A stretch of 53,322 bases of DNA, taken from contig CAJVPI010000109.1 of NCBI GenBank assembly GCA_910592345.1, positions 1 to 53,322 of the forward strand, given 5' to 3'. The notes under the pieces are model-generated. The model did not search any database, was not told the origin of the DNA, and saw nothing but the letters and a program-made list of their open reading frames with translations. This DNA comes from Paraglomus brasilianum (lineage: Eukaryota). Made by a program: the position numbers and the translations under genes. Shown here piece by piece: positions 10,906 through 44,600 of the stretch. Position 1 is the stretch's first letter, and the number at the start of each line of letters is the position of its first letter.

Positions 10906-11241
10906 CTGTCACACAAACAGTGTCAACACGTGTCATACGCGTTCAATTTGATGATGCAATACAATTATTCCATGTGATGCAATTGAGCACAGATATAACT
11001 GATAAGTCTAAATCTTTGAAACGTCGATGTTGACGCGGGGGGAAAAAAATAAAGGTAAAGGTAAGGTAGAGATATGCTCAAGCTTTACTTGCAAATGAAA
11101 CCACTGGCTAGAATTAATGAGAGATAATAATAACTATAGCTTTTGCTCAAGCAACTCCTCCGTTACGAACAGAACTGTCTAGCGGTAAAGTAGATTTATT
11201 ACGAGTACTGTTTTGTAGAAGGTTTATTATTAATATTGTCT

Positions 11242-13018
11242 ATGAACAAAACAGCTATGGAGGACGTTCACTTGAGCTCTTCGTCATCTAAAAGAATCTG
11301 GGTAAAATATGGTGACGGCCGGCCGGTAAAGGTTGCCTTCGACGGAAGCGATGTGGACGACTTGAAAGAAGCAATAAAGAAGAAGTTATCGCCTGATTTA
11401 GATGATGTGGCCGTTAGCCGGATCACCCTGAGGAAGCACGGCAAGGAAGAAGACTTGGATCCGGGACTAGTTATAGATGACAACTTTAAAAACACCTCGA
11501 AAACATCTCTACAGCTTATCATAAATGCACCTGGTATGTATTCAAGTTTACTTGAAAGCATCATAGAGTTGATTTGCTGAAGTCGTTTTCTCTTATGCGT
11601 CTCTGTCTTGTTTATCTGCGTTATCGTCGTAGCGTCCAACAAGAGAAAACTGTCCCCTCATTCGCAATACATGGAAGACCTCAAGTGCATTAAAATGGAC
11701 GAGCTATTTTGGAATCATCAGCCCCCATCAGCACAAGGCATTCCGACTGAGTTGCTGCATTCCGTGTTTGGTCAATTCCTAGATGACTGCACGGCCATTC
11801 AACCAGAGTTCCAAGATGTGCAGTTTACATATGAGTTCAGTGCTGAAATGTCCAGATACTTTTGCACTGAGGGTGCACGTGCAGCGAGTTTCCGGGATCT
11901 ATTCAAGAAACACTTCGATATTGATCTTTGCTGTGTTGAGTTGTCTGCCTCAGATGACAAAAATAATAAGCTGAGGACTGACAGTACCTTATATGAGGGT
12001 AAATTCATGGTGATAAATGTAGAAGTAAAGTCAGAACTTTGCACTGGCACAAGCAATCCATATATCCAGAACATTGCATATTACAAGGAATACCTCCTTA
12101 AGAATAGTAACATCACCAAAATGACCAGGCTTCCCTGTTTTCTTATCGTTGTGTCAGGACCACTGTTCAGTATCTCAACTGCCATTTATGGTGAAAAGGT
12201 CACTGTGGATCCATATCCATATGTCCTTTCCCTTGATTGCTCTTTATATCATTATATGAGTCTCACCCATGTCTTTTGTGCTCTAAGGAATGCATTAAAG
12301 GTCTGTAAATCGAGCATTGGTTGAAGGCAATGACATGACAATTAACCATTTGTTCCTTATATTAAAGGCCCTGCAGCAGTATTACATCATGCCCCCACTT
12401 ATCGAGCCAGATCAACAACCATTTCCATATATTGACTCTTTTTTGTTTGATGATGAAGTCTGTGTTTACTTCAAGTATCAAACTAGGCTTAACCCATTAG
12501 TGTTTGTTGTTCAGGTGGTGAAAGATGCACCAGAGAACTTTCCGGAATATGTTGTTGTAAAATTCACTCATTGTTATGATAAAAACATCCATCAGGCCTT
12601 TGCAAAACTCAAGATTGCACCACAGCTCTATGGCTTTGAACATCTACCTGGTGGATGGAAAATGGTTGTGATGGCATTTGTAGGTTATGATTTTAAGATA
12701 CTATTAGAATGTGAAAAAAATCAATATATCAAGCAGGCTGTGGAGGAAATGGCAATGAAGATGCATGGTGAAGGGCTTGTACATGGTGATCTACATGATT
12801 GGAATATCCTTTGCTGCTACAATGACAATGACAATTCAGCAGATATATTTTTTGTTGATTTGGACTGGGCTGGCCAAGAAGGAACAGTTCAGTACCCCTT
12901 AAATATCAATCCAGATATCACTCGACATCATGAAGCAACAGCTGGTAGTCTTATTCATAAAGAACATGATTTGTATTTGTTACAGGAAATTTTCAAAACC
13001 TGTAGAAGTTGTAAATAG
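11242..13018 (+). CDS. Crinkler (CRN)-like protein: ubiquitin-like header + PD-(D/E)xK REase + APH/RIO-like kinase, ~536 aa, 3 exons (11242-11533, 11633-12300, 12368-13018)
   Basis: GT-AG introns splice in frame. Header: IWVKY...DVDDLKEAIKKKL...LQLII. REase: RTDST...VEVKSELCTG..NPYIQNIAYY. Kinase: VVVKF, APQLYG, VVM, HGDLHDWNIL, VDLDWAG, YP..IN. Confidence 0.85.
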
Positions 13019-14280: not shown

Positions 14281-16667
14281 TCATTGCGGTTCAACGTTCA
14301 CTTTGCGATTCCATTCTCTACTTCGAATCAAGCTGTCAATTATCTTAATACCACGGTGTCCCCAAATCGGATTTTTCTCCCACGAACGCTGCTCAGCCAA
14401 TTCAATAGATAATTCTTGAGGAGTGCGGTTTTTCCTAGCCGATTCTGCTAGGATGCTCTTTGTCAGATTGTAAATTGAATTCTAAGGTGCATTATATATG
14501 TAATAAGGTTGTCGAAATTAAAACATGGAATTTGGAGAAACGAGAGAGATTGGTGCAAAGGAACGCTTCAAACTTACATCCCACGAATCACCCAAATGCA
14601 TTTCAATGTTGGGATCATTATCGACATATCCTACCGCTTCATCTGCGCAGTTTACAATTCCTGGTCGTATGGATGTTTTGCATTAATGTTGAGATTAATG
14701 TTCATTTCTGTGATATCAGTATTAACCGTACTTACCCATTCTGTTGGCCAAAAAGTCTGTTAATAACAGCAACCGTATTAGTCAGTCTTGTATGAATAAA
14801 CAACCAGACATCCCATATGCTAGTCTCCTTCCTTACCGGGTACATAAATGATCCCTCGTTCGGCCAAAAGCTTGTCATCACTCGTTAAATCTATGGTATA
14901 ATCACGAGATTGAAAAGTTTAATGCCGTGTCTTTGCCATGAAAGCTGTCTTATAACATTATCACGCATCAACAGACATATCGATGAGAATGATTTATGGC
15001 TAGTTTAGACATACCATTAAGTTGATTGTTTGCGGCGCCGCAGATAACCTTTGCTTTTATGTTGGGAATTGTCTGTGGGTTCAGAATGCCACCAACCGCA
15101 CATGGTGCTAACGCGTCTACATCTGCGTATTGAGACTGCGTTAGTCTGCCCTTACACACACGCCCATCATAAAATTGCATTCCGCAAAAAATAAATACCC
15201 TCATATAGTATCATATCGTCTCGAGACAAAACACTCTCCAGCCTAAGCCGTCCGCTAGCAGTCCACCTTCTCAATTGTTCTGCAGCCAAATTTATTCGCG
15301 ATGAATCAATATCGGAAGCGATGATATGAGACACTTCTTTCCTGAGAAGATGTTCTATGAGTTTGATGCCTACGTGCCCAACACCCTAAATGAGAAACAG
15401 ATCGTTTGAGATGAAATGTACTATCAAACTAATAGCGGTTAAGAAAGTAGCAAACCTGAACAGCGATTGTTGCGCCCTCTAGTGATTTCCCAATATATGA
15501 TAGAGCAGCTTCTAAGCCTCGAAGAACGCCTCGAGCCTATCGATTATGACATATTACCTGAGATGCAAAAAACAAACCGAATATTGCATTTCATGTGTCC
15601 AGACTTACCGTTGGCTCACTTGGATTTCCTGATCCGCCAAATTCATGTGGAATACACGTTGTAAAACGCGTCTTAGAAAACATTGCAGCCATGTCTTGAT
15701 CTAATAATGCGATGGGAACTTTAATGTTATAATTTTAGAAAATACTAAAGATGCTCATGACAAATACCCATTGTTCCTACGTCTTCAGCAGTCACATAGC
15801 AACCTCTCAATGCACTTGAAATTTAAAAATGCAACAATATAAATAGGCATGTATTCGAAAAAATCTGTACTTTCAAGAAATGCCAAATATCTTTTCCAAC
15901 GTACGTCATAAAGCTGCCATACTCTTCATACACAATTTTTCTGTCGTCGGCCTTACTGCCTGGCCCTCTGCATGCCACAATTATTCACAAGTAATTAGCT
16001 ACAATGAAATAACTTCTTCCTTGTGCATTCTAATTTTAACGCGATACTCACAGTCCGACTCCAGTATTCCTCGCCAACAAACCCTTCCCGCCACCCCACC
16101 ATAACCCGGCTAGAGCATTCTTATGGGTCATACCACGAGACAGACGTAGACCGTCTCGGAACCAGTCTTCTACAGTCCTATAAGTCCAGTTACGGACGCC
16201 TCCTGCGCCAGCACCACGACATGTGCGATGTATGAACGCTCCCTTTTGAAGCGTTGGAATAGAAGAAAGTATGAGCGATGGAAAAATAGAAATTGTGTGG
16301 TTTGAACGCGTCACTGAATTTTTCACCTGCAAAACACCTGACTTTGGACCGATCTGGATAAGAGAGATAGTCAATATATAAACATTTCGTAATCACCAAA
16401 TCTATGGCAATTTTTGAATCCAATCCAATCCAATCCAATCCGTCGCCACGAACACATCCGTACCTGGCCAAAAATACCTTCGTGTGAATCGAAATCTCTT
16501 CCTTCATTTCTAAAATATTCTACAATTGGATCTAATGCGCTATGTGATGTTGCAAACTTTCTTGCATCCGGTTTATAGACAGCATGGAACGTAGATATCC
16601 CGCGAGATCTAAGGAAATATATAAAGTCCGGGAGATTTAGTGTGAGAAGCGCTGGTTTTGTAGCCAT
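14281..16667 (-). CDS. Glu/Leu/Phe/Val (leucine-dehydrogenase-like) NAD-dependent amino-acid dehydrogenase, multi-exon
   Basis: [41 protein letters not shown], Rossmann [36 protein letters not shown]. Confidence 0.9.
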
Positions 16668-17655
16668 TAAAAGAGAAGTATGATATATAGACAATACTAG
16701 ATAGACAATACATGATGAAATATTCGATGGTTTTTTAAATAGGAGGCAGGGGCCAACAATTCTGAAAAGGGCTTTTTTTTTCAGTGTCACAACAACGTGA
16801 CTAGAATGTATGTTAATTCGTTTGCTATATCTCTAAATAAACATAGCGGTATTGACTTTACTATTCTGTAAGATGTTTGTAATGGACTATCCCCATGCAA
16901 TAATGTACAATATTCGTTTAGTCGAGATTATAAATGCCTAAACTGGATTTTAAACATTATTATATTAAACGTTTATCAACAACAAAATCTAACACGCGTC
17001 AAATTGAAAGAGATTATTTAAATTTTAATTCTAAGAGGGCGATGTCTTCGAGTTGGTGTTTTGACTAATCGGGTATCCTTTTCTCAATTGCGTTATAAAC
17101 TAAGCTGTAAGGGCCTTAGCTAATGCCAGGGACTATGTATTATTCCCTATCGTTGGATATGTTTAGGCTGATTAAGCCTACTTTTACCACTAAAATTCTA
17201 ACTCTTGTTAGTGAGTTAGAATACCTTCCTGAATGAGTATAATTCAATTTACAGTATGTGTAGACTATGAATTATTAATATTTAATTATGAACTATTAAA
17301 CGTGCTATTAACACATGAATGGCACACCTCTACACACTAACTACACTAATACTAATGGAATTTTTACGCTCCTTATAAATAATCGCGTTTACTAATTTTA
17401 GCCAAAAACTCTATGCGAGTATGTCTCGATTTCATTGGGTCATTATTATGACTCAATTTCATTAATTTATACGAACATTCAGATGTACTGTCGCTCCACT
17501 ACAAATGTTGTTACCTACGAAACCAAGCTCACAAGATAAAAACTTTTAATGCAATAATTGTAATTGTACAAGTGATAATCATTATAATTTCAATCACGTG
17601 ATATGATATTTTAAAAGTGACATTTCTTCAAGTTTATTTAAATGATCACCTTCTA

Positions 17656-18779: not shown

Positions 18780-20807
18780 CTAATGTGCTAATACACTAGT
18801 ACTGGTAACACTTTTCTCGACAAGATTTCCGTGTACCAATCTTAATTGCTCGTCAGTCCAGATGGGCGCAGGTTTAAGATCACCAGTACCCACTCCAGCG
18901 CACCCTCCTTCGGCCTCCCAATCTTTAACACGCTTTAATCCATTCCTACTCCAAATGGACTCCAACACATCTACCAAATAATTAGCCATCTCGGGGGTAT
19001 GACCCGGGGTAGGGGTAATCCGAAGACGTTCCTGTCCACGAGGAACAGTAGGATAATTGATACTCTGAACATATATGCCATAATCTCGCAACAGCTGGTC
19101 AGAAGCAAACTTACAACGTTCAGCATCACCGACAAGTACAGGAACAATATGAGAAGGATTAGGCACAACAGGAATATCAATCTCGGCTAATTTAGCCTTA
19201 AGAGAGCGAGTGTTTAACTGTTGCATCTCTCTCTCTTTCGTGGATTGCTTAAGATAGTTGATAGAAGCCTTAGCACCGGCCACAACGGCGGGTGGCAATG
19301 AAGTAGTAAAGATAAAACCTGGCGCGTACGATCTAATCATATCTACCAACCGAGCAGACCCGGCAATGTACCCACCAACAACACCATATGCCTTCCCAAG
19401 AGTGCCAGAGATAATATCTACTTTATCCAAAATGCTTCCATTACCACCATAAGGATGTCTAGCATTTAACTCATAATCTAGGTGCTCAGCCACGCCAGCT
19501 CCTCTCGGTCCATACATTCCTACAGCGTGGACCTCGTCAAGAAACGTAATTGCACCATATTTCTTTGCTAAATCACAAATCTTTTCAATGTGCCCTACAG
19601 TACCACTCATAGAGTAAACGCTTTCGAAGACAATAATCTTTGGAGTACTAGTCGGTACAGTTTGTAACTTTTCTTCGAGATCCTTAAGGTCGTTATGCTT
19701 GAAGATTAATTTCTTGGCTCCAGAATGACGAATACCTTGAATCATCGATGCGTGATTAAGCGCATCGGACAAGATGACGCAGTTTGGGAGTTTGGCAGCG
19801 AGAGTGGAAAGAGCAGCATCGTTGGCCACGTAGCAAGAGGTAAAGACTAGAGCGGAGGCCTTGTGATGAAGATCCGCCAATCCAGCCTCGAGTTGTAAGT
19901 GGAGGTCGGCATTACCGGCTATGTTGCGCGTACCACCTGCACCTGCACCGTATTTACTAAGAGTTTGTCTGTGAAGAGCGAAGCATGCAAAGTGCCCAGG
20001 AAAAGAATAAAGGGAATGCGGGACAAAAGATTAGGTGGCTTGGTAGGAAATAATTAGAGGAAAACAAATACAAAAGGAAATGAAAAATTCTCAAAGTTTG
20101 CTTACTTCATAGTTTCCAGGACAGTAGGGTTTCTTCCCATTCCAAGATAATCATTGCTGCACCAGACAGTGACTTCCTCATTGGCATTAGCAGTATGGGC
20201 TCTAGGAAATTTCTGAGCAAGTCTATTGATATTGTTAAAGTAACGATAGCTCTTATCCTTGTGCTTTTTATCAAGCTCTTCTTGATATAATCCTTCATAA
20301 TCGAAAGATTGAGAATTGGTCTTGTGAGTTACTGGAGGGTGATGGAAGGGGCAAACACCTGTTGATTGGTAGTTGGGTCGGGGAAAGCGTAATTAGTATA
20401 AAAATGGTTGTTTATCAGGATGCTGAGCCAACAAAAGTTATCAAATTCTCGGACAACAATATCTAATTGCATAATATTCTTTTCTTACCTTCGTTTCTTT
20501 TTTTCTTGGTTTCTGTAGGATGGGTAGCAGGAATAGCAGCAGGAAGTTGACTAGTGTCGTTCACAATGCTCGCATGATTTAATTTCAAAGTCGGCTGCTG
20601 AGCCATAGGAGCACTGCTATGAAGGTAACGGTTACTTTGAACCGCCATAGCTTTACCCATTATTGGGCATTTCTTCGCCATTGACAACAACCCGTTGCCG
20701 CCATCAGCAACTGGGGCTGGAGTACGGGCAAGGTTACGGAGAGTAGCGGCGGAATTACGGTATAAGAATGGACAAGCCTTTCTAGAGGTTTTCAGAATCG
20801 ATTCCAT
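18780..20807 (-). CDS. HEM1: Mitochondrial 5-aminolevulinate synthase (exons 20807-20489, 20358-20106, 19968-18780)
   Basis: [68 protein letters not shown] (PLP Lys), [10 protein letters not shown], and CP motifs in the presequence. Confidence 0.97.
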
Positions 20808-21895: not shown

Positions 21896-23226
21896 ATGGC
21901 AAGCATTTTCTCATCACCGCTTCCATTGACAGACCACAATTTTGTAGAACCTCGCAAGATGATCAGACAGCATAGTGACATTGACGTTTGGGTAGAGTCT
22001 AAGGCATTTGCACGATTTTTGATGTTCATCAAATTGCTAAATGAAAGCATTCTCAACAAGAAGATCTCGGATCCATGCACCGTTTCTGAGGTTTACATTT
22101 TCGATTCTTGCATTAAAATGTACGTGAATTAACAAAAGAATGAGTTATCGATGGCTAACTTTGGCTTTGAATAAATCCATCATAGACAACTCAGAAACTC
22201 GTGGACATTCTAGAGCAGTTATCGAATTGGATAGATGAGATCCCCCCATTACCAACCCCGCAACGGTTTGGAAACAAGGCATTTCGTGACTGGATTGCTC
22301 GCTTAGAGAATGTATTCAATCGTCTATTGTTTAACAACTTTTTAGTAAACAATTCATCAGCTGCCTGAGATTTAACCATTTTATTATCCAGAATGCAGTT
22401 GAGATACATAAAAATCTCCTTTTACCTCAATGGCATGATGCTATAGTTGAACTGGTACCACTGTTTAATGGAAGTTTTGGTCATGGAATACGCATTGATT
22501 ACGGCAGTGGTCATGAACTAAACTTTGTTACGTGGTTGTGTTGTCTTACTCTTTTGGGTGTTTTTACACAAGAGGATTATCATGCTCTGATCTTGAGAAT
22601 ATTTTCAAAGTAAGGTCAACCTGTTTCAGTCTTTTTTTTTTCTTTTGTGAACTTTAATTAACTTCAATATTTACAGATATCTGGATCTTGTGAGAAAACT
22701 GCAAATTGTTTACAATCTTGAACCAGCCGGAAGCCACGGTGTGTGGGGACTAGATGATCATCAGTTTCTCTCGTACTATTGGGGAAGTGCTCAGTTAAGA
22801 GGTTAGCTGCATACTGACAATTACGATATATTAACAATAACAATTTCATTGACTGAATTGATGAACGTACTTCAGATCACCAACGTCTCAAACCCAAGTC
22901 GATTATCAATAAAGAGTTTGTAGAAATGTTTGCTGACGATTACATGTATTTTGGATGCATTAAACATATTAACAAGGTAATTATCCATAACTACTGGCAT
23001 GGCTATGTAATAAGGCTTGTTAACTGTCTATTTGAACATATAGATAAAAAGAGGACCTTTTCATGAGCACTCGCCTATACTCTATGACATCTCAGGAGTG
23101 CAATCATGGCAAAAGGTTAATTCTGGGTTATTGAAGATGTATGTTGCCGATGTTCTCAAGAAATTTCCTATAGTTCAACACTTACTATTCGGTACTCTTC
23201 TTCCGTTCGAGCCTAACCAAGACTAG
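21896..23226 (+). CDS. PP2A phosphatase activator PTPA (Rrd1/Rrd2 family), multi-exon
   Basis: [66 protein letters not shown]...KFPIVQH. Confidence 0.95.
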
Positions 23227-23865
23227 TCAACGGATAGCAATCAGTCTTTGGCAATACTAAACGTCTAGCATAAATATAATTTATTTGTATTAATAATTAT
23301 TAGCGAATTTTTGGGTGCATCACTTGGGTGCAATTTCAACGTCCGAACAACTCATACCTACTGTATCTCGTGGATAAGTTTTAGCATTTAGCTAGCCAAA
23401 TGAGCATATTTCGAGTTATGTATTAAAATCCTCGATGACATCAATAACTGTCTTGGTTTGTGTGTTAAAAGCAAATCTACGTGCAAGCGCAAACTCGATC
23501 GCAATCTTGTCTTGAACGTGATGGATGTATTACCATAGAACAAGCTATTGCTATCGAGAGTTTCTACATATACGTATACCGATTGAGTACAATTTTATTT
23601 TCTTCTGGGCCGCTCATCAAGTGTATGACTATTCGGCTCTGTTGAATGCTTAAATTGGAGAATTCACCGTGATATCGCGTAATTATTTAAATCTCCGATC
23701 TCATATATACGCCAATTCATGCAACTGGAACATGGTTATGTGACCGAGTTTTCTAGTTGGCATTACATGCATAAGAATAGAACGCACAGAACTGACTTTT
23801 TTGATTAGACGCGTATTTTGGAAGGAAATAAAGCCTAAGCATTTTATTCCAAAAACACGAACTTA

Positions 23866-25091
23866 AAGCCTTATTGGAACGGCATAGTCTCAGAAATTGT
23901 GGTTATCCATTTGTGACTGACTCTGCCCCCCCCCCCCCCCCCATACTACAAAACTCATGGTTTTCGTCAAGGAAGAAGAGTCCCCCGACGAGAACCCCAA
24001 ACAAGGGAAAAAACGTTAATGAGCATGAGGACAAGAGACTTCAAAAATCATGCGCATGGGGTGAACGCAAATTCGTGCGAACTGTTGTGCGTATTGGAAT
24101 GTGATGAAGCATTAACTGCTAGGTATGATTGTTATTTTTCGATTCTTTTTTTGTTTCGATTCGTTTTGATTTATTTTATTTTTATTTTTATTTTTATTTT
24201 TATTTTTATTTGTTGTTTTATTGTTATTTTTATTGTAATTGTTATTGCTATTTTATTGTTATTGTAATTGTTATTTTATTTATTTATTTTTGACAATTTT
24301 AGGGGCAAGATAATTAACCAAAATATAGAAACCAGCAAAGTTCGATAAACGAGTATTTATCCGCCGCTTTCACCGTCATACTCGATTATCAAAGTTCGTC
24401 TTTGTCGAAATAATTCGTGCGCAGAATTTTTCAAAATCCACGTTTATATCCATGCTTTCCGCATACCTGTTATCACTCTGGACGACAAACGCGATTTGTG
24501 GCCGCTTCATTTCGAAAAAAAAAAAAGGCATAATAATAAGTGGCCTGTTCCTCACAGAATAACGTCCGACAAAACTAATGAATGGAAATTTTCATGACAC
24601 CGCGAAACCTAAGCGGATAGTTCTATTCATGCAGTTTCCTTCACATTGTACTCTCCTACTAAAAATTGGCCAATACAACATTGGGCGTCTATGCAAGCAT
24701 CTTCTATCTATAAAGGACAAGCTGGTTGCCTCTAGTTCAAAACGTAAGAAGAAAAATCATAAAAAGAGTGTCGCGTTTTTTACTCGTCGAATTTGATGCC
24801 ATTATCATTCTTCCTTTTGAGGTGTCGAATATGGTAAATCGTAAAACAAGAAAGATAACACGAAAAACCGTTCGTAAAATGCTCTGTTGGGGCCACTTTC
24901 GCCAACGTCTAATGGCTAAAGCAGAAGAATTAGGTTCATGTTATTATCCAAAATGAGGCATACACTTCAAAAACTTGCAGCTGGTGTGGGAGCGTTCAAA
25001 AATTAGGAGGGTCCGGTGCCGAAAATTGTGGGACTGTAATGGATCGAAATGAAAATTGGCGCTCGGGAATGCATTGCTTGATGGAGCCTAG
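23866..25091 (+). pseudogene. Degenerate Fanzor (IS607-type TnpB-like RNA-guided RuvC nuclease), with putative intron 24123-24302
   Basis: Collinear motifs across frames: KPYWN, SQKLWL, NSWFS, KVR*TSIYP, TLYSPT..KIG...RLCKH, HKKSVAF, EFDAIIILPFEVSNMV (RuvC-II), RKMLCWGH.FRQRL..KAE, NEAYTSKTCSWCG, CR.CG, MDRNEN-GAR (RuvC-III), ALLDGA*. There are many indels. Confidence 0.85.
24165..24292. repeat. (TTTTTA)n/(TTGTTA)n hexamer low-complexity tract inside the putative Fanzor intron
   Basis: Seen directly in the sequence. Confidence 0.85.
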
Positions 25092-25362
25092 ATTCTCAGT
25101 TATAGTAGTAATGCCTATTGATATGTTACAATCCATCCGGCAGTACCAATAGACACCACTCTACGTAAATATTTTAATAGTTGCTACGGTTTTATTAAAG
25201 ATTTAGTGAACAGTATGGTCTAGTGAAGTAGGATATATAATGCAAAATTCAAAGCTTCATGATAAATTTATTATACATTGCTAACAACACTCGCATTTCC
25301 AAGAACTTGTTTTCGACCCGCAAATAATTCGTCTATAGAATTGATTGTACGTTCTATCGATT

Positions 25363-31507
<6,145 letters not shown>

Positions 31508-32072: not shown

Positions 32073-35000
32073 ATGAGCGTGATAGAAGTAAAAAGATCTT
32101 CCACTGAGGAAATTGATGTTGAAGAGACGGAAATTGAGGTCACTCTTTTTTATACATTCGACTGTTTTGATAATAGCATAGGTGTTCACGCAATCTTTCT
32201 CTTAATAGACCTTTGAGTTTAAACAACTGAGTAAAGATATTACCAAAGTAAAGATCGCAGATAAAGAATTTGATCCGAAAGAATTTCCGTCTCGCGTATC
32301 ATTATTCGCATTATCGAATACGTTTGGGTACTTTGTTGCTGCTTCCACGGAAGGTTAGTTCAGAAATGATTCATGTAAATAAAGTTCACGGTTGAATGAA
32401 GGCGTACAATTACATTGATAATCATAAATTCCTCAACATACAATCAGGGTTTATCTTCTCTACGACGAAAAATCTGAGAAGCTCTTTCATCGATGCTACA
32501 GGACCGCAACCAACGAAGAGATCAGAAAGGCCTCCCATACAGCAGGCTGTTCATGTTAAAATAAAAGATGGAAGGATACGCTGTCTACGATTGTCCTTTG
32601 ATCAATTGACTATATGTGTTGCAGTATCGAACGCTGCGAATGCTGGTGGAGGACGTCTTTTACTTTACGATGCAGCGGCTTTATCTCGCGCTGTAATTTT
32701 TGTTTCCGATTGGCTTCATGTTTATTTCTTGTATTATATATAAAGTGACATTGGTACATTCAACAATACAGTGCAAGGATGTTGGCCCGTACCAAGAAAT
32801 TTTCCTAGATTCAGACATTGTTGAGATTAGACCAAATACCGGTGACAAACCAAATATTATAGCTGTTCTGTTAATAACTGGGAGCGTGATGATTATCAGC
32901 TTTGAGTCTAATAATGCAAAAGTTATCTCGGAGATTAAGGGAGACGTAAGTTCAAGTATGTTATCAAATTATTGTAAACCGCTTCATATTACATGAGGGT
33001 TATCACTGTACATTCTAACATTCTTCTTGCGTCAAGTTTGTTGGTCTCCGAAGGGAAAGCAGATCGCGTGTGGAACGTATTCTGGGAAGATATTACAATA
33101 CACACAAGACGCAATAGCCAAAGTTATATATCCACCACCGCCTAATTTACCGGAAAACCAATCAATGAAAGGTATTAACACAGAGTATATAGCCAAATAC
33201 GATTATTGTTTCTGTTTAATGGTGTTCGCTATAGCTGATTACGTCAATGCTATCTTTAGTGTTGAATTTATTCTGGTTAGAAACTTTCATTTTTGTGGTA
33301 GTATATTATCCTGTGGTACAAGATGAAAATGCGGAAGCGATATCATACGCCGTAAAGCGAGAATCAGACAGAGCTAAATACAACAAGATACCAGCACTAT
33401 GTCTTCCAGTCTTTGCAACAGAACGTGGACCTAACTTCTACATAGAAATATTTAGAGGATGGTAAGATAACAATTCTTATGAACCGTTCTGGAATAGAAC
33501 TCGACTTAATTATCCAACAATTATGTAGGGATAGTAAAAGTCCATTTATCTTAGTATGCGCAAACACACAATCTTCCGAAATCGAACTGGTTGCATTCAA
33601 TAACAATCGATGGACAAAATGGTTTATTGAAATTGAAACATCCCGAGCATCACTGCCATTATCAGATCTCCCAAACAATGACGAAGATACTCATATCGTC
33701 GGAATGGCTCTTGATTTCACTGATATTGATGAATGGATGATAAAGCTAGACGAAGACTCGACCTCATCCGTACCCCCTGCCCCAATACTATATATACTCA
33801 ACGACGAAGATGATGCAATAGCCTATAGGTGTTTTAATAAAGAAGCATTTATTGAAAACGTATCGTATTCACAAATGGCGAAAGCGCAGCAGCTGCCAGA
33901 AGTCGGACCATCAAACAAGAAAGTTGAGCAAGGCGAGTACAGTTCCGTTGTGCAGCAAGACAAGGTTGACAAAACAAGCCAGCCAACGCTTCCACCAGAA
34001 ACTCCCAAGGCACAAATTATTCCACCCCCTCAGATTGAACATGTTGGACAGAAGAAGAGTTCGCCATATTATGAACCTGCCATGGGACTGGCTCAACTGA
34101 TAGACGTAGTGAGTATAATGTATTAAACTGTATTGATTCGCGATAAATGGATTATTTATTTTAAACTATAATCAAACTATCCCCGAACAGGTTCTCAAGA
34201 AACAAGAAAATACTCAAAGACACTTTGAAAGCAGGAAGAGGGCTGCTGCTTATCGTTTCTCTCGACCAGAATATGCTAGTGCAGAAGATTTAAATTGTTA
34301 CGATTTGCGCAAAATTGAGAAACTACAAGATAAATTTAAACATCAATTAGAGATATTGGATGCAAACTCTAACCATCTGAAACAAGAAGTAGCCAAAATA
34401 CGCACGTCTGTTTACAAAGGTATGATGGCTGAATGAGCATCCATCGATCTAGCAATGTTTCTCAACCCTCTTTTATTTTACAAAGGTAGGACTACGTCAG
34501 AAATGATTGAACTTCTTCGAGAAGCTATGGAAAGACCTACTACTGGAAGACTCGGTATAATCCAGGCACGCGTTAAAGGCCAGTTAGAAAAGAGTGTCAG
34601 AGTAAGTAAAATAGTGTATTATTTTGAATAAACTTGCCTTTTTTGAGACCATTGATCTAACTCTTGTAACTTATAGGTATTGGGCGAAAATATTCAATTG
34701 TTGGAAACTCAATTATCGGCTTTGAAAAAGCAAATTGCAGAGCGCAAGGGTAAAAAGATATTAACGTAAGGTTCAATTAAATATCAATACTTATTGTCGA
34801 TTAGAATCTTTTAATCAAGTAATGGCTTTCACATAGGCCTCAGCCACTGGAATTTGTCGACCGTTCAATTTGTAATATTAGCAAGACTATATCAGTAAAC
34901 TCTTGTGCAATCGATCGTTTAATAGAGGAGATGGGACAACTTGCAATCTCGCCCAATTCTGCAAAACCAACCTCCTCAAGTGTAATCCACCACAGTTTGC

Positions 35001-36896
35001 GAGGCAAGAAACGAGAAATCTCGACACCCGATAACATTATATTCCCTAATTCAGCGGCGGCACCGGTGGCAACGTTCGTAACGCGCGAATACAAATCTGA
35101 TAAATTGCGTAATGCATTTGAAACACAAAGAAGTCAGCCAGTGCTGACGAAAATTCACCGTGAAATTTTCGAAACACGAACCGCAAGTGGAGTACATATC
35201 TCGCCAATCCGCACGCCTCCTAAAAGAACTATAACGCAACAACAGAGAACGCCATCTGCTAGACCTAGAACTCGATATGATCAACGGCGGAACATGGGAT
35301 TTAATGTAATAAGCTGGGATAAAAAGGTGAAAGAATTTATTAAGAAAGACGAGAAAATATTAAATGAAGAGGAGGAAGAAGGTGAAGAAGGTGAAGAGTT
35401 CTATGATGAAGATGAGGAAGAGGATGAAGTAGTGGAGGAAGTGGTGGAGAAAGAAGTGGTGGAGAAAGAAGTGGTGGAGGAAGTGGTAGATGAAGAAGTG
35501 GAGGAGGAAGAAATGGTGGAGGAAGAAGTGGAGGAGGAAGAGGAAGAAGTGGTGGAGGAAGAAGTTGTGGAGGAAGAAGTTGTGGAGGAAGAAGTTGTGG
35601 AGGAAGAAGTGGCAGAGAAAGAAGTGGCAGAGGAAGAAGTGGCAGAGGAAGAAGTGGCAGAGGAAAAGGTGGCAGAGGAAAAGGTGGCAGAGGAAGGAGT
35701 GGTGGGGGAAGTGGTAGAGAAATTGGTGGAAGAAGAAGTGGTGGGGGAAGTGGTGGGGGAAGTGGTGAGGGAAGTGGTAGATGAAGAAGTGGAGGAGGAA
35801 TATGTGGAGGAGGAATTGGTGGAGGAAGTGGTGGTGGAGGAAGTGGTGGTGGAAGAAGTGGTGGTGGAAGAAGTGGTGGAGGAAAAGGTGGCAGAGGAAG
35901 AAGTAGTGGAGGAAAAGGTGGCAGAGGAAGAAGTGGTGGAGGAAAAGGTGGCAGAGGAAGAAGTGGTAGGGGAAGTGGTAGAGGAATTGGTGGAAGAAGA
36001 AGTGGTGGGGGAAGTGGTAGAGGAAGAAAAGAAGGAGGATGCATATGAGGAAGAACAGAAAAAGTTGGAAGAAGAGAAATCAATTAGTGAAATGGCCTTC
36101 GGACAACTTGCAATCAGTCAACCAACATTTGGACAGTCTACAATTACTCAAACCACCTTTGGACAGACTACAATTACTCAACCTACCTTTGGACAGACTA
36201 CAATTACTCAACCTACCTTTGGACAGACTACAATTACTCAACCTACATTTGGACAGACTACAATTACTCAACCTACATTTGGACAGACTACAATTACTCA
36301 ACCTACATTTGGACAGTCTACAATTACTCAACCTACCTTTGGACAGGCTGCAGTTGGTCAACCTACCTTTGGACAGCCAGCATTCAGTCAGCCTACCTTT
36401 GGACAGCCAGCATTTGGTCAGCCTACCTTTGGACAGCCAGCATTTGGTCAGCCTACCTTTGGACAGCCAGCATTTGGTCAGCCTACCTTTGGACAGCCAG
36501 CATTTGGCCAACATGGATTTGGTCAGCCCGTATTTGGCCAACATGGATTTGGTCAACATGGATTTGGCCAGAATCCTACCCTTGCTGCTCAATCTTCTTT
36601 GAAAGCACCAACAACTGGTGGATTTGCTAGATATACAAGGTATGGCATGATATTGTCTTTATTCATACTTAATACAATATGAGTTAACGTCTTCCCCTTA
36701 ATGTTTAGTAATAGTAAACTTGGAGGCTTCGGTGCACCCTCAGCACCAAGGTTAGTCAATGAAATAGTATTTATTAACTGTTGAATTTGTAGTCTATTTA
36801 TATCTATTTGATCATATATTAATATCTTTCTTTTTCCAATACAGTGATAATACAAACACACCCCAAGATTCTCGTTTTACACAGCATCGAGGATAA
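32073..36896 (+). CDS. NUP159: Nucleoporin Nup214/Nup159 family, multi-exon
   Basis: N-terminal beta-propeller (SLFALSNTFGYFVAA, CWSPKGKQIACG, IVGMALDFT, PPAPILYIL), coiled-coil exons at 34.2-34.9 kb, an acidic tract, C-terminal xFG repeats, GGFARY, and the end FTQHRG*. Confidence 0.9.
35365..36075 (+). repeat. Glu/Val-rich coding low-complexity tract (EEEVV/EEKVA pentapeptides), nearly C-free purine-rich strand
   Basis: 15-nt GAGGAAGAAGTGGTG-type repeats, in frame in ORF 34931-36682. Confidence 0.9.
36118..36570 (+). repeat. FG-repeat array: 30-nt units QPTFGQTTIT, then QPTFG/QPAFG and QHGFG units
   Basis: Near-identical tandem 30-mers CAACCTACmTTTGGACAGACTACAATTACT. Confidence 0.95.
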
Positions 36897-43879: not shown

Positions 43880-44600
43880 CCACTTACCACTGTATACAAA
43901 TATATCAAAATAATACTTCTTTAAATCCTCTGCCAGGCCAAGAAAGTTTTCCCCTAAACAGCGTTGGCATCTCGGCTAGCTTGCCTCAGCAAACAAATAC
44001 TCTACGAGCACTAAACTCGCGAATACTTTAAATGATTATCATTCCTAACTTAAATTTAGTAGTGACAGTACTCAATGAGCTCCATAATCTCCAATATCAC
44101 GCCACAGTTCCAAAACCCATCCCTCTTCTTACAGCCACTCATAACAAATATAGTGGCATTTGCCATAAAATACAAGAAACAAAATTGGAACAAGGTCATA
44201 TTTTCTGATGAAACTACGTTCCAGATGTTTCGAAATACTCCAAAAATATTTTACAAAAATGGCACTCAACCTCCAAGTAAGGCCACGGTAAAACACCCCT
44301 ATAAAGTTCACGCCTTCTCAGTAAAAGGTCTTGTTGGCTTTTTTCTTTTCACAGATATTATGGACAGTACGATTTTAACTGAAAATCTTTTTGATGATGC
44401 AAATGCTATTATGGGAAACAATTGGATGTTCCAACAAGAGAAGCATAAAGCTAAGGAAACTACTCATGCAGCGATACCCAAAAATTATGGATTAGCCGTC
44501 TAATAGTCCAGATATTACATCGCACGAAAGCCGACTACCACATTGCTCTTACCGAGGATATTTTGGAAAACTGCGCCGAGATGTAAAGAAAGTTATGGGA
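43880..44600 (+). pseudogene. Tc1/mariner (DD34E) transposase relic
   Basis: ARPRKFSPKQR HTH linker, NWNKVIFSDETTF (first catalytic D), WMFQQ(DN lost), PSNSPD, with stops and frameshifts. Confidence 0.85.

Follow-up and report, generated by a model that had tools for sequence, protein, structure and literature searches.

The locus examined here raises the question of what lies between two convergent genes of the arbuscular mycorrhizal (AM) fungus Paraglomus brasilianum, PTPA (forward strand, stop near 23225) and an ABCC transporter gene (reverse strand, stop near 25363), in the window, i.e., the whole stretch of 53,322 nucleotides that was analyzed. A sequence-only reading had placed there a relic of an IS607-type Fanzor, an RNA-guided nuclease, visible only when reading frames are switched. 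The motifs it had named were found at the positions given: KPYWN at 23866-23880, SQKLWL at 23888-23905, NSWFS ending at 23966, NEAYTSKTC from 24952 (24952-24978), DRNEN at 25042-25056, and LLDGA* ending at 25091. The zinc-ribbon/RuvC-III signature was likewise confirmed, as Pfam PF07282 matched positions 24934-25149 with an E-value of 6.4e-08, better than the cut-off; NCBIfam guided_TnpB matched two pieces of the relic, under its whole-protein cut-off. With a 62-aa piece of the relic, 29 of 46 candidate proteins were matched at E<=0.001, with identities of up to 84%. A frameshift-aware alignment was performed against the intact relative P0184, and the two were collinear from PYWN to LLDGA, with 349 aligned residues, 209 of them identical, and 9 frameshift events. 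On 23800-24010, the N-terminal 130 aa of this protein reached a score of 107; the highest score among 143 random stretches of the window was 34. The supposed linkage of the N-terminal motifs to the RuvC part was also observed, since both occur in one protein in the full-length relatives.

One motif did not withstand this analysis. KVR*TSIYP (about 24337-24365) is a chance look-alike inside a scrambled stretch (24322-24409) with a local inverted repeat (I2); as a candidate WED/HTH motif it was ruled out as non-homologous, the stretch being unalignable to the metagenome loci L001-L003 and L005. The true KVYPNHPQKQLLKRWMG motif is gone with a deletion near 23975-24006. The first reading had also missed an exon-1 piece, GKNVNEHEDKRLQKSCAWGERKF, 84% identical to P0009 by tblastn, together with the intron, the tnpA frame, and both ends of the element. 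Collectively, the reading as a dead IS607-type Fanzor relic is supported, and the nuclease is more precisely a Fanzor2. We consider it very probable that the relic, which extends over ~23747-25139, derives from a fungal IS607-type transposon present in many copies, whose Fanzor2 gene, with a likely intron, begins in the +1 frame of tnpA; in this decayed copy, both genes are broken.

The relatives of the nuclease were searched with a 469-aa relative as the query, and 679 proteins were found among 7995 scored. Named close relatives came from Diversispora, Gigaspora, Cetraspora, Glomus, Rhizophagus, Geosiphon and the chytrid Borealophlyctis, and cluster members provided full-length proteins of 601-643 aa (P0154, P0167, P0184 and P0195). 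A DPG motif, DRDxN, and a Glu lying six residues ahead of the zinc finger were all present in 25/25 close relatives checked; PMC10711439 gives these three motifs as Fanzor fingerprints. A quick tree was computed over the RuvC part (85 rows, SH-aLRT, no Fanzor1 or ApmFz2 reference row), and two long branches meet in it. It placed the relic beside P0004/P0139, their group (support 97) also containing rows of Gigaspora, Cetraspora, Glomus and Geosiphon, and every one of the 25 labelled prokaryotic rows fell beyond a branch of support 100. Over an 89-residue RuvC piece, the relic was 81% identical to Rhizophagus-type and Gigaspora-type proteins, as high as the 79-80% of the conserved ALA synthase, and horizontal transfer between AM fungi is a candidate reading of this identity. 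The ALA synthase exon at 18783-19964 of the window is 100% identical to a Paraglomus brasilianum protein and 75-80% identical in other Glomeromycota. One scan of viral contigs with P0154 gave no match, which is weak evidence against a viral origin. Separately, the Borealophlyctis gene model P0051 carries FHA and HMG-box domains ahead of a full Fanzor2 of this group, either a fusion or a model error.

The exon structure was examined by comparison with six metagenome loci (L001-L006); over 24410-25139, the window DNA is 88.9% identical to L001 and 92.1% identical to L005. All parts of the element lie on the forward strand. The exon 1 remnant, encoding part of the REC region, spans 24006-24122 and follows the loss of about 300 nt that carried the HTH/WED start; at this joint, other copies skip 30 letters of the window and have 326 letters between. 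A T-rich tract of 180 nt (24123-24302) opens with GT, closes with AG, and has been swollen by T-rich repeats. The same codon position holds a tract of 76, 76 and 94 nt in L002, L003 and L005, respectively, and L001 starts inside it. With the tract removed, the reading is DEALTAR|GKIIN, in agreement with DEALTARDNIIN of P0009. Judged by its sequence, it is likely a spliceosomal intron, in phase 2. Full-length relatives are without it, and these could be spliced transcripts or intronless copies. Introns are already known in Fanzors, including Fanzor1 (PMC10530073). The exon 2 remnant (24303-25097) comprises WED, RuvC-I, RuvC-II, zinc finger and RuvC-III, with the shifted Glu at 24955-24957, the place of the lost DPG at about 24637, and an Asp-to-Asn change in RuvC-III at 25048-25050.

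These data bear on whether the relic is simply an IS607 tnpB of bacterial origin that came from an endosymbiont or contaminant through mis-assembly or recent transfer. The DPG motif, the shifted Glu, the overlap of the two genes and the pseudoknot described below are indeed common to bacterial pro-Fanzors. Nevertheless, the likely intron stands at a shared position, the element is continuous with the fungal genes in that one mismatch-free contig spans from the PTPA gene into it, and the nearest named relatives are Glomeromycota: intact relatives are 81-87% identical over the same 89 residues, against 47-57% for the bacterial ones. A bacterial source is thus largely refuted, and we regard it as barely credible.

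For the family, the best PDB match was ApmFz2, the mimivirus Fanzor2 (9b0l), with E-values of 4.7e-19 by sequence and 3.2e-54 by profile. The fold was analyzed on the intact relative P0154, whose model had a mean pLDDT of 67.7, and Foldseek ranked 9b0l first and SpuFz1 at 30 or lower. Superposition on 9b0l gave a VIA Z of 21.1 and an rmsd of 4.8 over 429 aligned residues, model residues 44-612 lying on 53-517 of the chain. Only 9b0l aligned from model residue 44 on; the next 39 rows began at 147-155. Within this N-terminal stretch, the pLDDT was 60-82 in the 41-60 blocks and 64-75 in 81-110. The model therefore predicts for the family a compact, TnpB-like fold with an N-terminal domain (RuvC-R, thumb), nearer to ApmFz2 than to Fanzor1.

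The DNA that encodes this N-terminal domain also encodes something else. Read one letter earlier, KPYWN becomes KALLER, SQKLWL becomes VSEIVV, and NSWFS becomes KLMVF. The dual-coding remnant at 23857-24005 accordingly holds ELKALLER, IVSEIVVIH, D*LC, HTTKLMVF and QGRR in the tnpA frame, and KPYWN, SQKLWL, PFVTDSA, ILQNSWFSS and KEEE..DEN in the +1 frame of Fanzor2. The first of these frames encodes the catalytic domain of an IS607 serine recombinase and matches the fungal gene models P0192 and P0048. In L003, which is fungal-type DNA, frame 1 carries the end of TnpA and frame 2 reads as Fanzor, and the loose ends of other copies in sequencing run X1 included TSDEHKLSQ and RPPTSTNFPK, one in each frame. 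The gene models P0192, P0069 (Rhizophagus) and P0048 (Cetraspora) blend both frames. At the level of the family, a tnpA with a MerR-type HTH and serine recombinase stands upstream of the nuclease (P0069, with PF12728 and PF00376; P0192; P0048; L003). In the window, only a short remnant of the TnpA frame is left: no match came from a tnpA HMM run on the six frames, and no tnpA 5' part was found upstream of 23857. The P0192 piece scored 30 on the window, where the random maximum was 33 (of 144 random stretches, 1 scored as high). The piece of P0048 scored 45, the best of 149 random stretches reaching 40, and this match is partly coincidental. A poly-C tract reading PPPPP was considered as the PPPP linker of P0069 and rejected in favor of a local deletion plus a homopolymer.

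The bacterial relatives allowed us to generate quantitative data on the overlap. We used the best 80 of 547 loci, ranked by likeness to a query bearing the extension. A pattern search yielded 43 bacterial loci with both ORFs, and 42 of these had a +1 overlap, usually of some 500 nt. With no overlap filter, one ORF held the tnpA catalytic domain nearly in full in 47 of the best 80; among these, the +1 frame was open in 47/47 (0 stops in 4736 codons), a count biased upward because the loci were picked by likeness to a query with the extension, and the +2 frame had 273 stops and was open in 0/47. Selection for a full tnpA with overlap gave 31 non-redundant loci, which had 5 stops where 254 were expected. 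Moreover, wobble positions were fixed where the +1 frame reads W or F, Leu being xTG and Val GTT in 31/31 each. The profile aligned SWF of the N-terminal domain with N82-S83-W84 of ApmFz2, where N82 and S83 contact the omegaRNA pseudoknot (PMC11832414). The overprinted stretch is thus likely a real part of the nuclease, corresponding to the RuvC-R that grips the pseudoknot in ApmFz2, and overprinting of tnpA likely explains the origin of the extra N-terminal domain of Fanzor2.

It could be argued that, in the fungi, the PYWN/LWL/SWFS stretch is a mere by-product of tnpA coding that is left untranslated in the nuclease. These motifs are what the codons of conserved TnpA residues give when read in the +1 frame, many database gene models begin downstream of them, and eukaryotic ribosomes seldom translate nested frames. 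This reading is nonetheless improbable in our judgment, for the open +1 frame and its motifs have been retained in P0154, P0167, P0184, P0195, P0037-39 and P0045, the wobble fixation and absence of stops are seen in the bacterial relatives, and the stretch is predicted to fold and can be aligned with the N-terminal domain solved for ApmFz2.

The openly available papers covered contained no account of a Fanzor2 N-terminal domain overprinting tnpA, and no paper on this IS607-Fanzor2 family in AM fungi was found among them. In the text available, PMC3673617 states that IS607 has two overlapping ORFs and nothing beyond that on the overlap, and the part of PMC10691335 at hand has no passage on a tnpA/nuclease overlap.

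The claim that this copy is dead was borne out at every level. In the nuclease, RuvC-I (IDPGVRTP) has been deleted, the second Asp of DRD is now Asn, and there are about 20 deletions; the comparison with L001 over 24410-25139 shows 18 of at least 3 nt. That second Asp aligns with the catalytic D501 of ApmFz2 (profile alignment; residue from PMC11832414), and the shifted Glu, aligned with ApmFz2 E467, has been kept. The window copy is thus without two of the three catalytic residues of Fanzor2. Its tnpA is missing the 5' part with the HTH and the catalytic Ser, and deletions in the omegaRNA region take parts of two inner hairpins. Because tnpA, Fanzor2 (both its frame and two catalytic residues) and the omegaRNA are all damaged, this copy is capable of none of excision, insertion or cutting.

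Microhomology-mediated decay was considered for these deletions and rejected, since 1 of the 18 had at least 3 letters of microhomology, against 7.8% expected. As a side observation, deletion lengths relative to L001 (window 24410-25139 and L002-L006; at least 5 nt, n=30) were 9-11 nt in 18/30 and 21-24 nt in 4/30, and just 3 fell within 5-8 or 13-18 nt. The lengths thus bunch near one and two turns of DNA, in counts that are alignment-based and may include some deletions shared by descent; this clustering may point to some peculiarity of DNA repair in these fungi. The observed/expected CpG ratio was depleted in L001-L003 (0.54-0.61) and was 1.18 in the window relic, 1.23 in L005 and 1.01 in L006, so the hosts of these copies may differ in the methylation of repeats.

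The right end of the element could be fixed precisely. The window, L001, L002 and L005 all terminate in CAATCCATCCG, after which their flanks diverge. This places the right end at 25139, after CCG in these four copies; in L006 the end reads TCCG and follows a short deletion, and L003 and L004 stop short of the right end or have lost it. The left side was analyzed by aligning contigs of four sequencing runs to window 22600-24120. The flank was single-copy up to about 23730, and beyond it many diverged contigs appeared: in run X1, 54 contigs aligned, 46 of them less than 99% alike, and the summed contig depth was 69 in the flank, 4906 at 23773-23823 and 3071 at 24028-24078, a depth that does not equal copy number. 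A Fanzor family in this fungal genome had been anticipated, and what was seen is a multi-copy family whose diverged copies number in the dozens within this one sample. The copies are many and their flanks differ; neither an intact copy from this genome nor an empty site was seen among these contigs and loci.

The left end itself was fixed only to about 12 nt, as two contigs align from 23735. Position 23747 is the likely left end because the sole CG there (in 23722-23750, where multi-copy cover starts) is in the ACCG at 23743-23746, and three bacterial relatives that end in ATCCG (L068, L084 and L086) start after ACCG. The other bacterial relatives start and end with GG. The ACCG is likely the target core and TAM side of the left junction, which makes CG the likely core and CCG the likely TAM; a CCG TAM has been reported for NlovFz2 (PMC10432273). 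An identical left junction was present in a soil run from another study (contig 17 of X4, 23402-23822). Within the window, we found no terminal inverted repeat between the element ends, no further copies of these ends, and no second match to the guide. L068, L084 and L086 are themselves of note as Dehalococcoidia IS607 elements with a CG core among GG relatives, i.e., a change of core specificity within one group.

The 110 nt from the likely left end to 23856 (23747-23856) are a high-copy stretch, by contig depth, with a hairpin at 23816-23854 (inverted repeat I20). They could instead belong to a separate repeat (23735-23856), the nuclease relic being real but 5'-truncated and its family possibly moved by another transposase, as in the Fanzor2* type. 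Contigs begin at 23735; among the contigs listed, the high-copy stretch is joined to tnpA in the window's own contig alone, none from another copy bridging 23856/23857, and other copies depart into different letters behind 23829 and 23854-23856. Fanzor2s do exist in non-IS607 transposons (PMC10711439). Set against this, tnpA belongs to the family (P0192, P0048, P0069 and L003), contig depth in three runs is of similar magnitude over the left stretch and the nuclease part, and the ACCG mirrors the right end at the expected place, as in the three Dehalococcoidia elements, with no terminal inverted repeat. We hold this alternative to be unlikely and keep the IS607-type element with its own tnpA as the preferred reading. 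The tip of the hairpin in 23735-23856 varies between copies, and the several continuations behind 23829 and 23854-23856 are seen also in organism B; they suggest non-autonomous derivatives or subfamilies.

At the other end, the degraded omegaRNA scaffold (25030-25139) overlaps the end of the ORF. A loop, GATGG, at 25080-25084, within the L-D-G codons, can pair with CCATC at 25133-25137 as a pseudoknot, directly before the core CG at 25138-25139; such a pseudoknot has been described for TnpB and Fanzor2 (PMC10711439; PMC11832414). The pairing covaries, being kept with other letters in bacterial relatives: all five pairs were present in 41 of 50 scored loci, with 37 of the 87 sequences unscored and three of the five pairs fixed by the search pattern; pair types were AC/GT, GG/CC, AA/TT, TC/GA, AT/AT and GA/TC. 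The fold of the last 150 nt of L001 was better than that of 200/200 shuffles (z=-3.59); z was -2.49 for L002, -0.55 for L005 and 0.06 for the window. An omegaRNA with a pseudoknot and a variable guide at the right end is thus predicted from sequence. The predicted guide is 25140-25155, the first flank letters past the right end, which vary among copies; its placement follows the TnpB/Fanzor architecture (PMC10711439, PMC10432273).

One might suppose that this protein-less copy was kept as a donor of guide RNA for Fanzor2 from other copies, since the pseudoknot loop and the right end are still there, along with most of the closing stem, and the same left junction recurs in the independent soil run (X4). 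However, parts of the two inner hairpins are deleted, the fold is no better than that of shuffles (z=0.06), and the 3' end is no better preserved than the coding part, which makes such a role very unlikely.

For working copies, the following cycle is proposed from the biology of IS607 and TnpB (PMC10711439, PMC13565253, PMC10690162). TnpA would excise the element as a circle, as inferred from the IS607/TnpB family, and would insert it at a CG core with no target duplication and no scar. The omegaRNA would be transcribed from the last about 150 nt plus flank, the flank serving as the guide, and Fanzor2 would cut the empty site (predicted TAM 5'-CCG, then the flank), so that repair restores the element. 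The empty allele of this locus is predicted to read ...GTGACCG^GCAGTACC. Leaky scanning, a second start site or splicing are candidate routes by which a eukaryote could make both proteins.

Fanzor2 in IS607-like elements has been known since PMC3627910, so the type of element is not new. With IS607EU/ApmFz2 (PDB 9B0L; PMC11832414, PMC10530073, PMC3627910), the fungal family has in common the DPG, the shifted Glu, the zinc finger and the RuvC-R 'NSW' domain, as well as a serine recombinase partner, a probable absence of inverted repeats, and a predicted right-end omegaRNA with a pseudoknot. It differs in being nuclear, in its likely intron, in a likely core of CG instead of GG (predicted TAM CCG), in an omegaRNA that lies mostly within the ORF, and in an N-terminal domain encoded inside tnpA; the window copy, moreover, is dead. 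Bacterial pro-Fanzor (TnpB2) IS607 elements (PMC10711439) share the active-site signature, the ~500-nt +1 overlap with tnpA, a right end of ...ATC-GG or ...ATC-CG, and the same pseudoknot, whereas they are without the intron and, at the identity given above for the RuvC piece, stand on the other side of the tree. Fanzor1 (SpuFz1, PDB 8GKH) is also fungal and RNA-guided and has the shifted Glu, yet it falls outside the 18 sequence matches of the profile and is without the pseudoknot and the serine recombinase partner.

Members of the family have been listed before. Tables S2 and S5 of PMC10711439 list as 'Fanzor' CAG8580437.1, our P0048, and KAJ3297308.1, our P0054, and Gigaspora, Rhizophagus, Diversispora and Cetraspora appear in its tables. 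P0048 is of the same family and in the relic's tree group, and its gene model fuses the TnpA and Fanzor frames. In the rows covered, the listing consists of automatic hits, and in the text available the ends, intron, omegaRNA and overlap are not described. The element type is thus known, the family is listed but undescribed, and what is distinctive is the dual coding kept in a nucleus, the likely intron, and the likely CG core. On balance, we lean toward the view that AM fungi hold an undescribed IS607-Fanzor2 family that has kept the bacterial dual coding in the nucleus through intron gain, that the whole transposase catalytic domain is read in a second frame as RuvC-R/thumb in a Fanzor2 domain born by overprinting of tnpA, and that intact fungal members are working native nucleases with a CCG TAM.

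Four other features of the window were recorded. Positions 11194-13018 encode a Crinkler-like N-terminal domain (PF20147, just under the cut-off) followed by a RIO/kinase-like domain, an effector-like layout that is common in AM fungi. At 34823-36682 (forward strand), a NUP159/214-like gene, with PF16755 upstream, has a long Glu/Val-rich repeat and QPTFG repeats, and accounts for the GC-skew peak at 35001-36000. Frameshifted pieces at 16048-16832 (reverse strand) resemble a Glu/Leu/Phe/Val dehydrogenase in one motif, and a Pfam scan of one piece gave no match. An ORF at 44066-44503 (forward strand), which resembles a Tc1/mariner transposase relic in its 'VIFSDET' and 'FQQ' motifs, likewise gave no match in a Pfam scan.

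The dead copy matters as a pointer to its family. Many Fanzor2 and pro-Fanzor constructs may be incomplete because gene callers trim the N-terminal domain or fuse the frames, as in P0048, P0069 and P0192. To our knowledge, there are no good genetic tools for AM fungi; P0154, P0184, P0167 and P0195, being full-length with intact catalytic motifs, a short omegaRNA and a predicted CCG TAM, are testable candidates. How a eukaryote would express two nested frames is a question that the family raises. The family also offers a likely origin for the N-terminal domain of Fanzor2, called unique in the cryo-EM structure, in an overprinted transposase frame. It would then be one of the few examples of a folded domain that arose anew within another gene and passed from bacteria into the eukaryotic nucleus.
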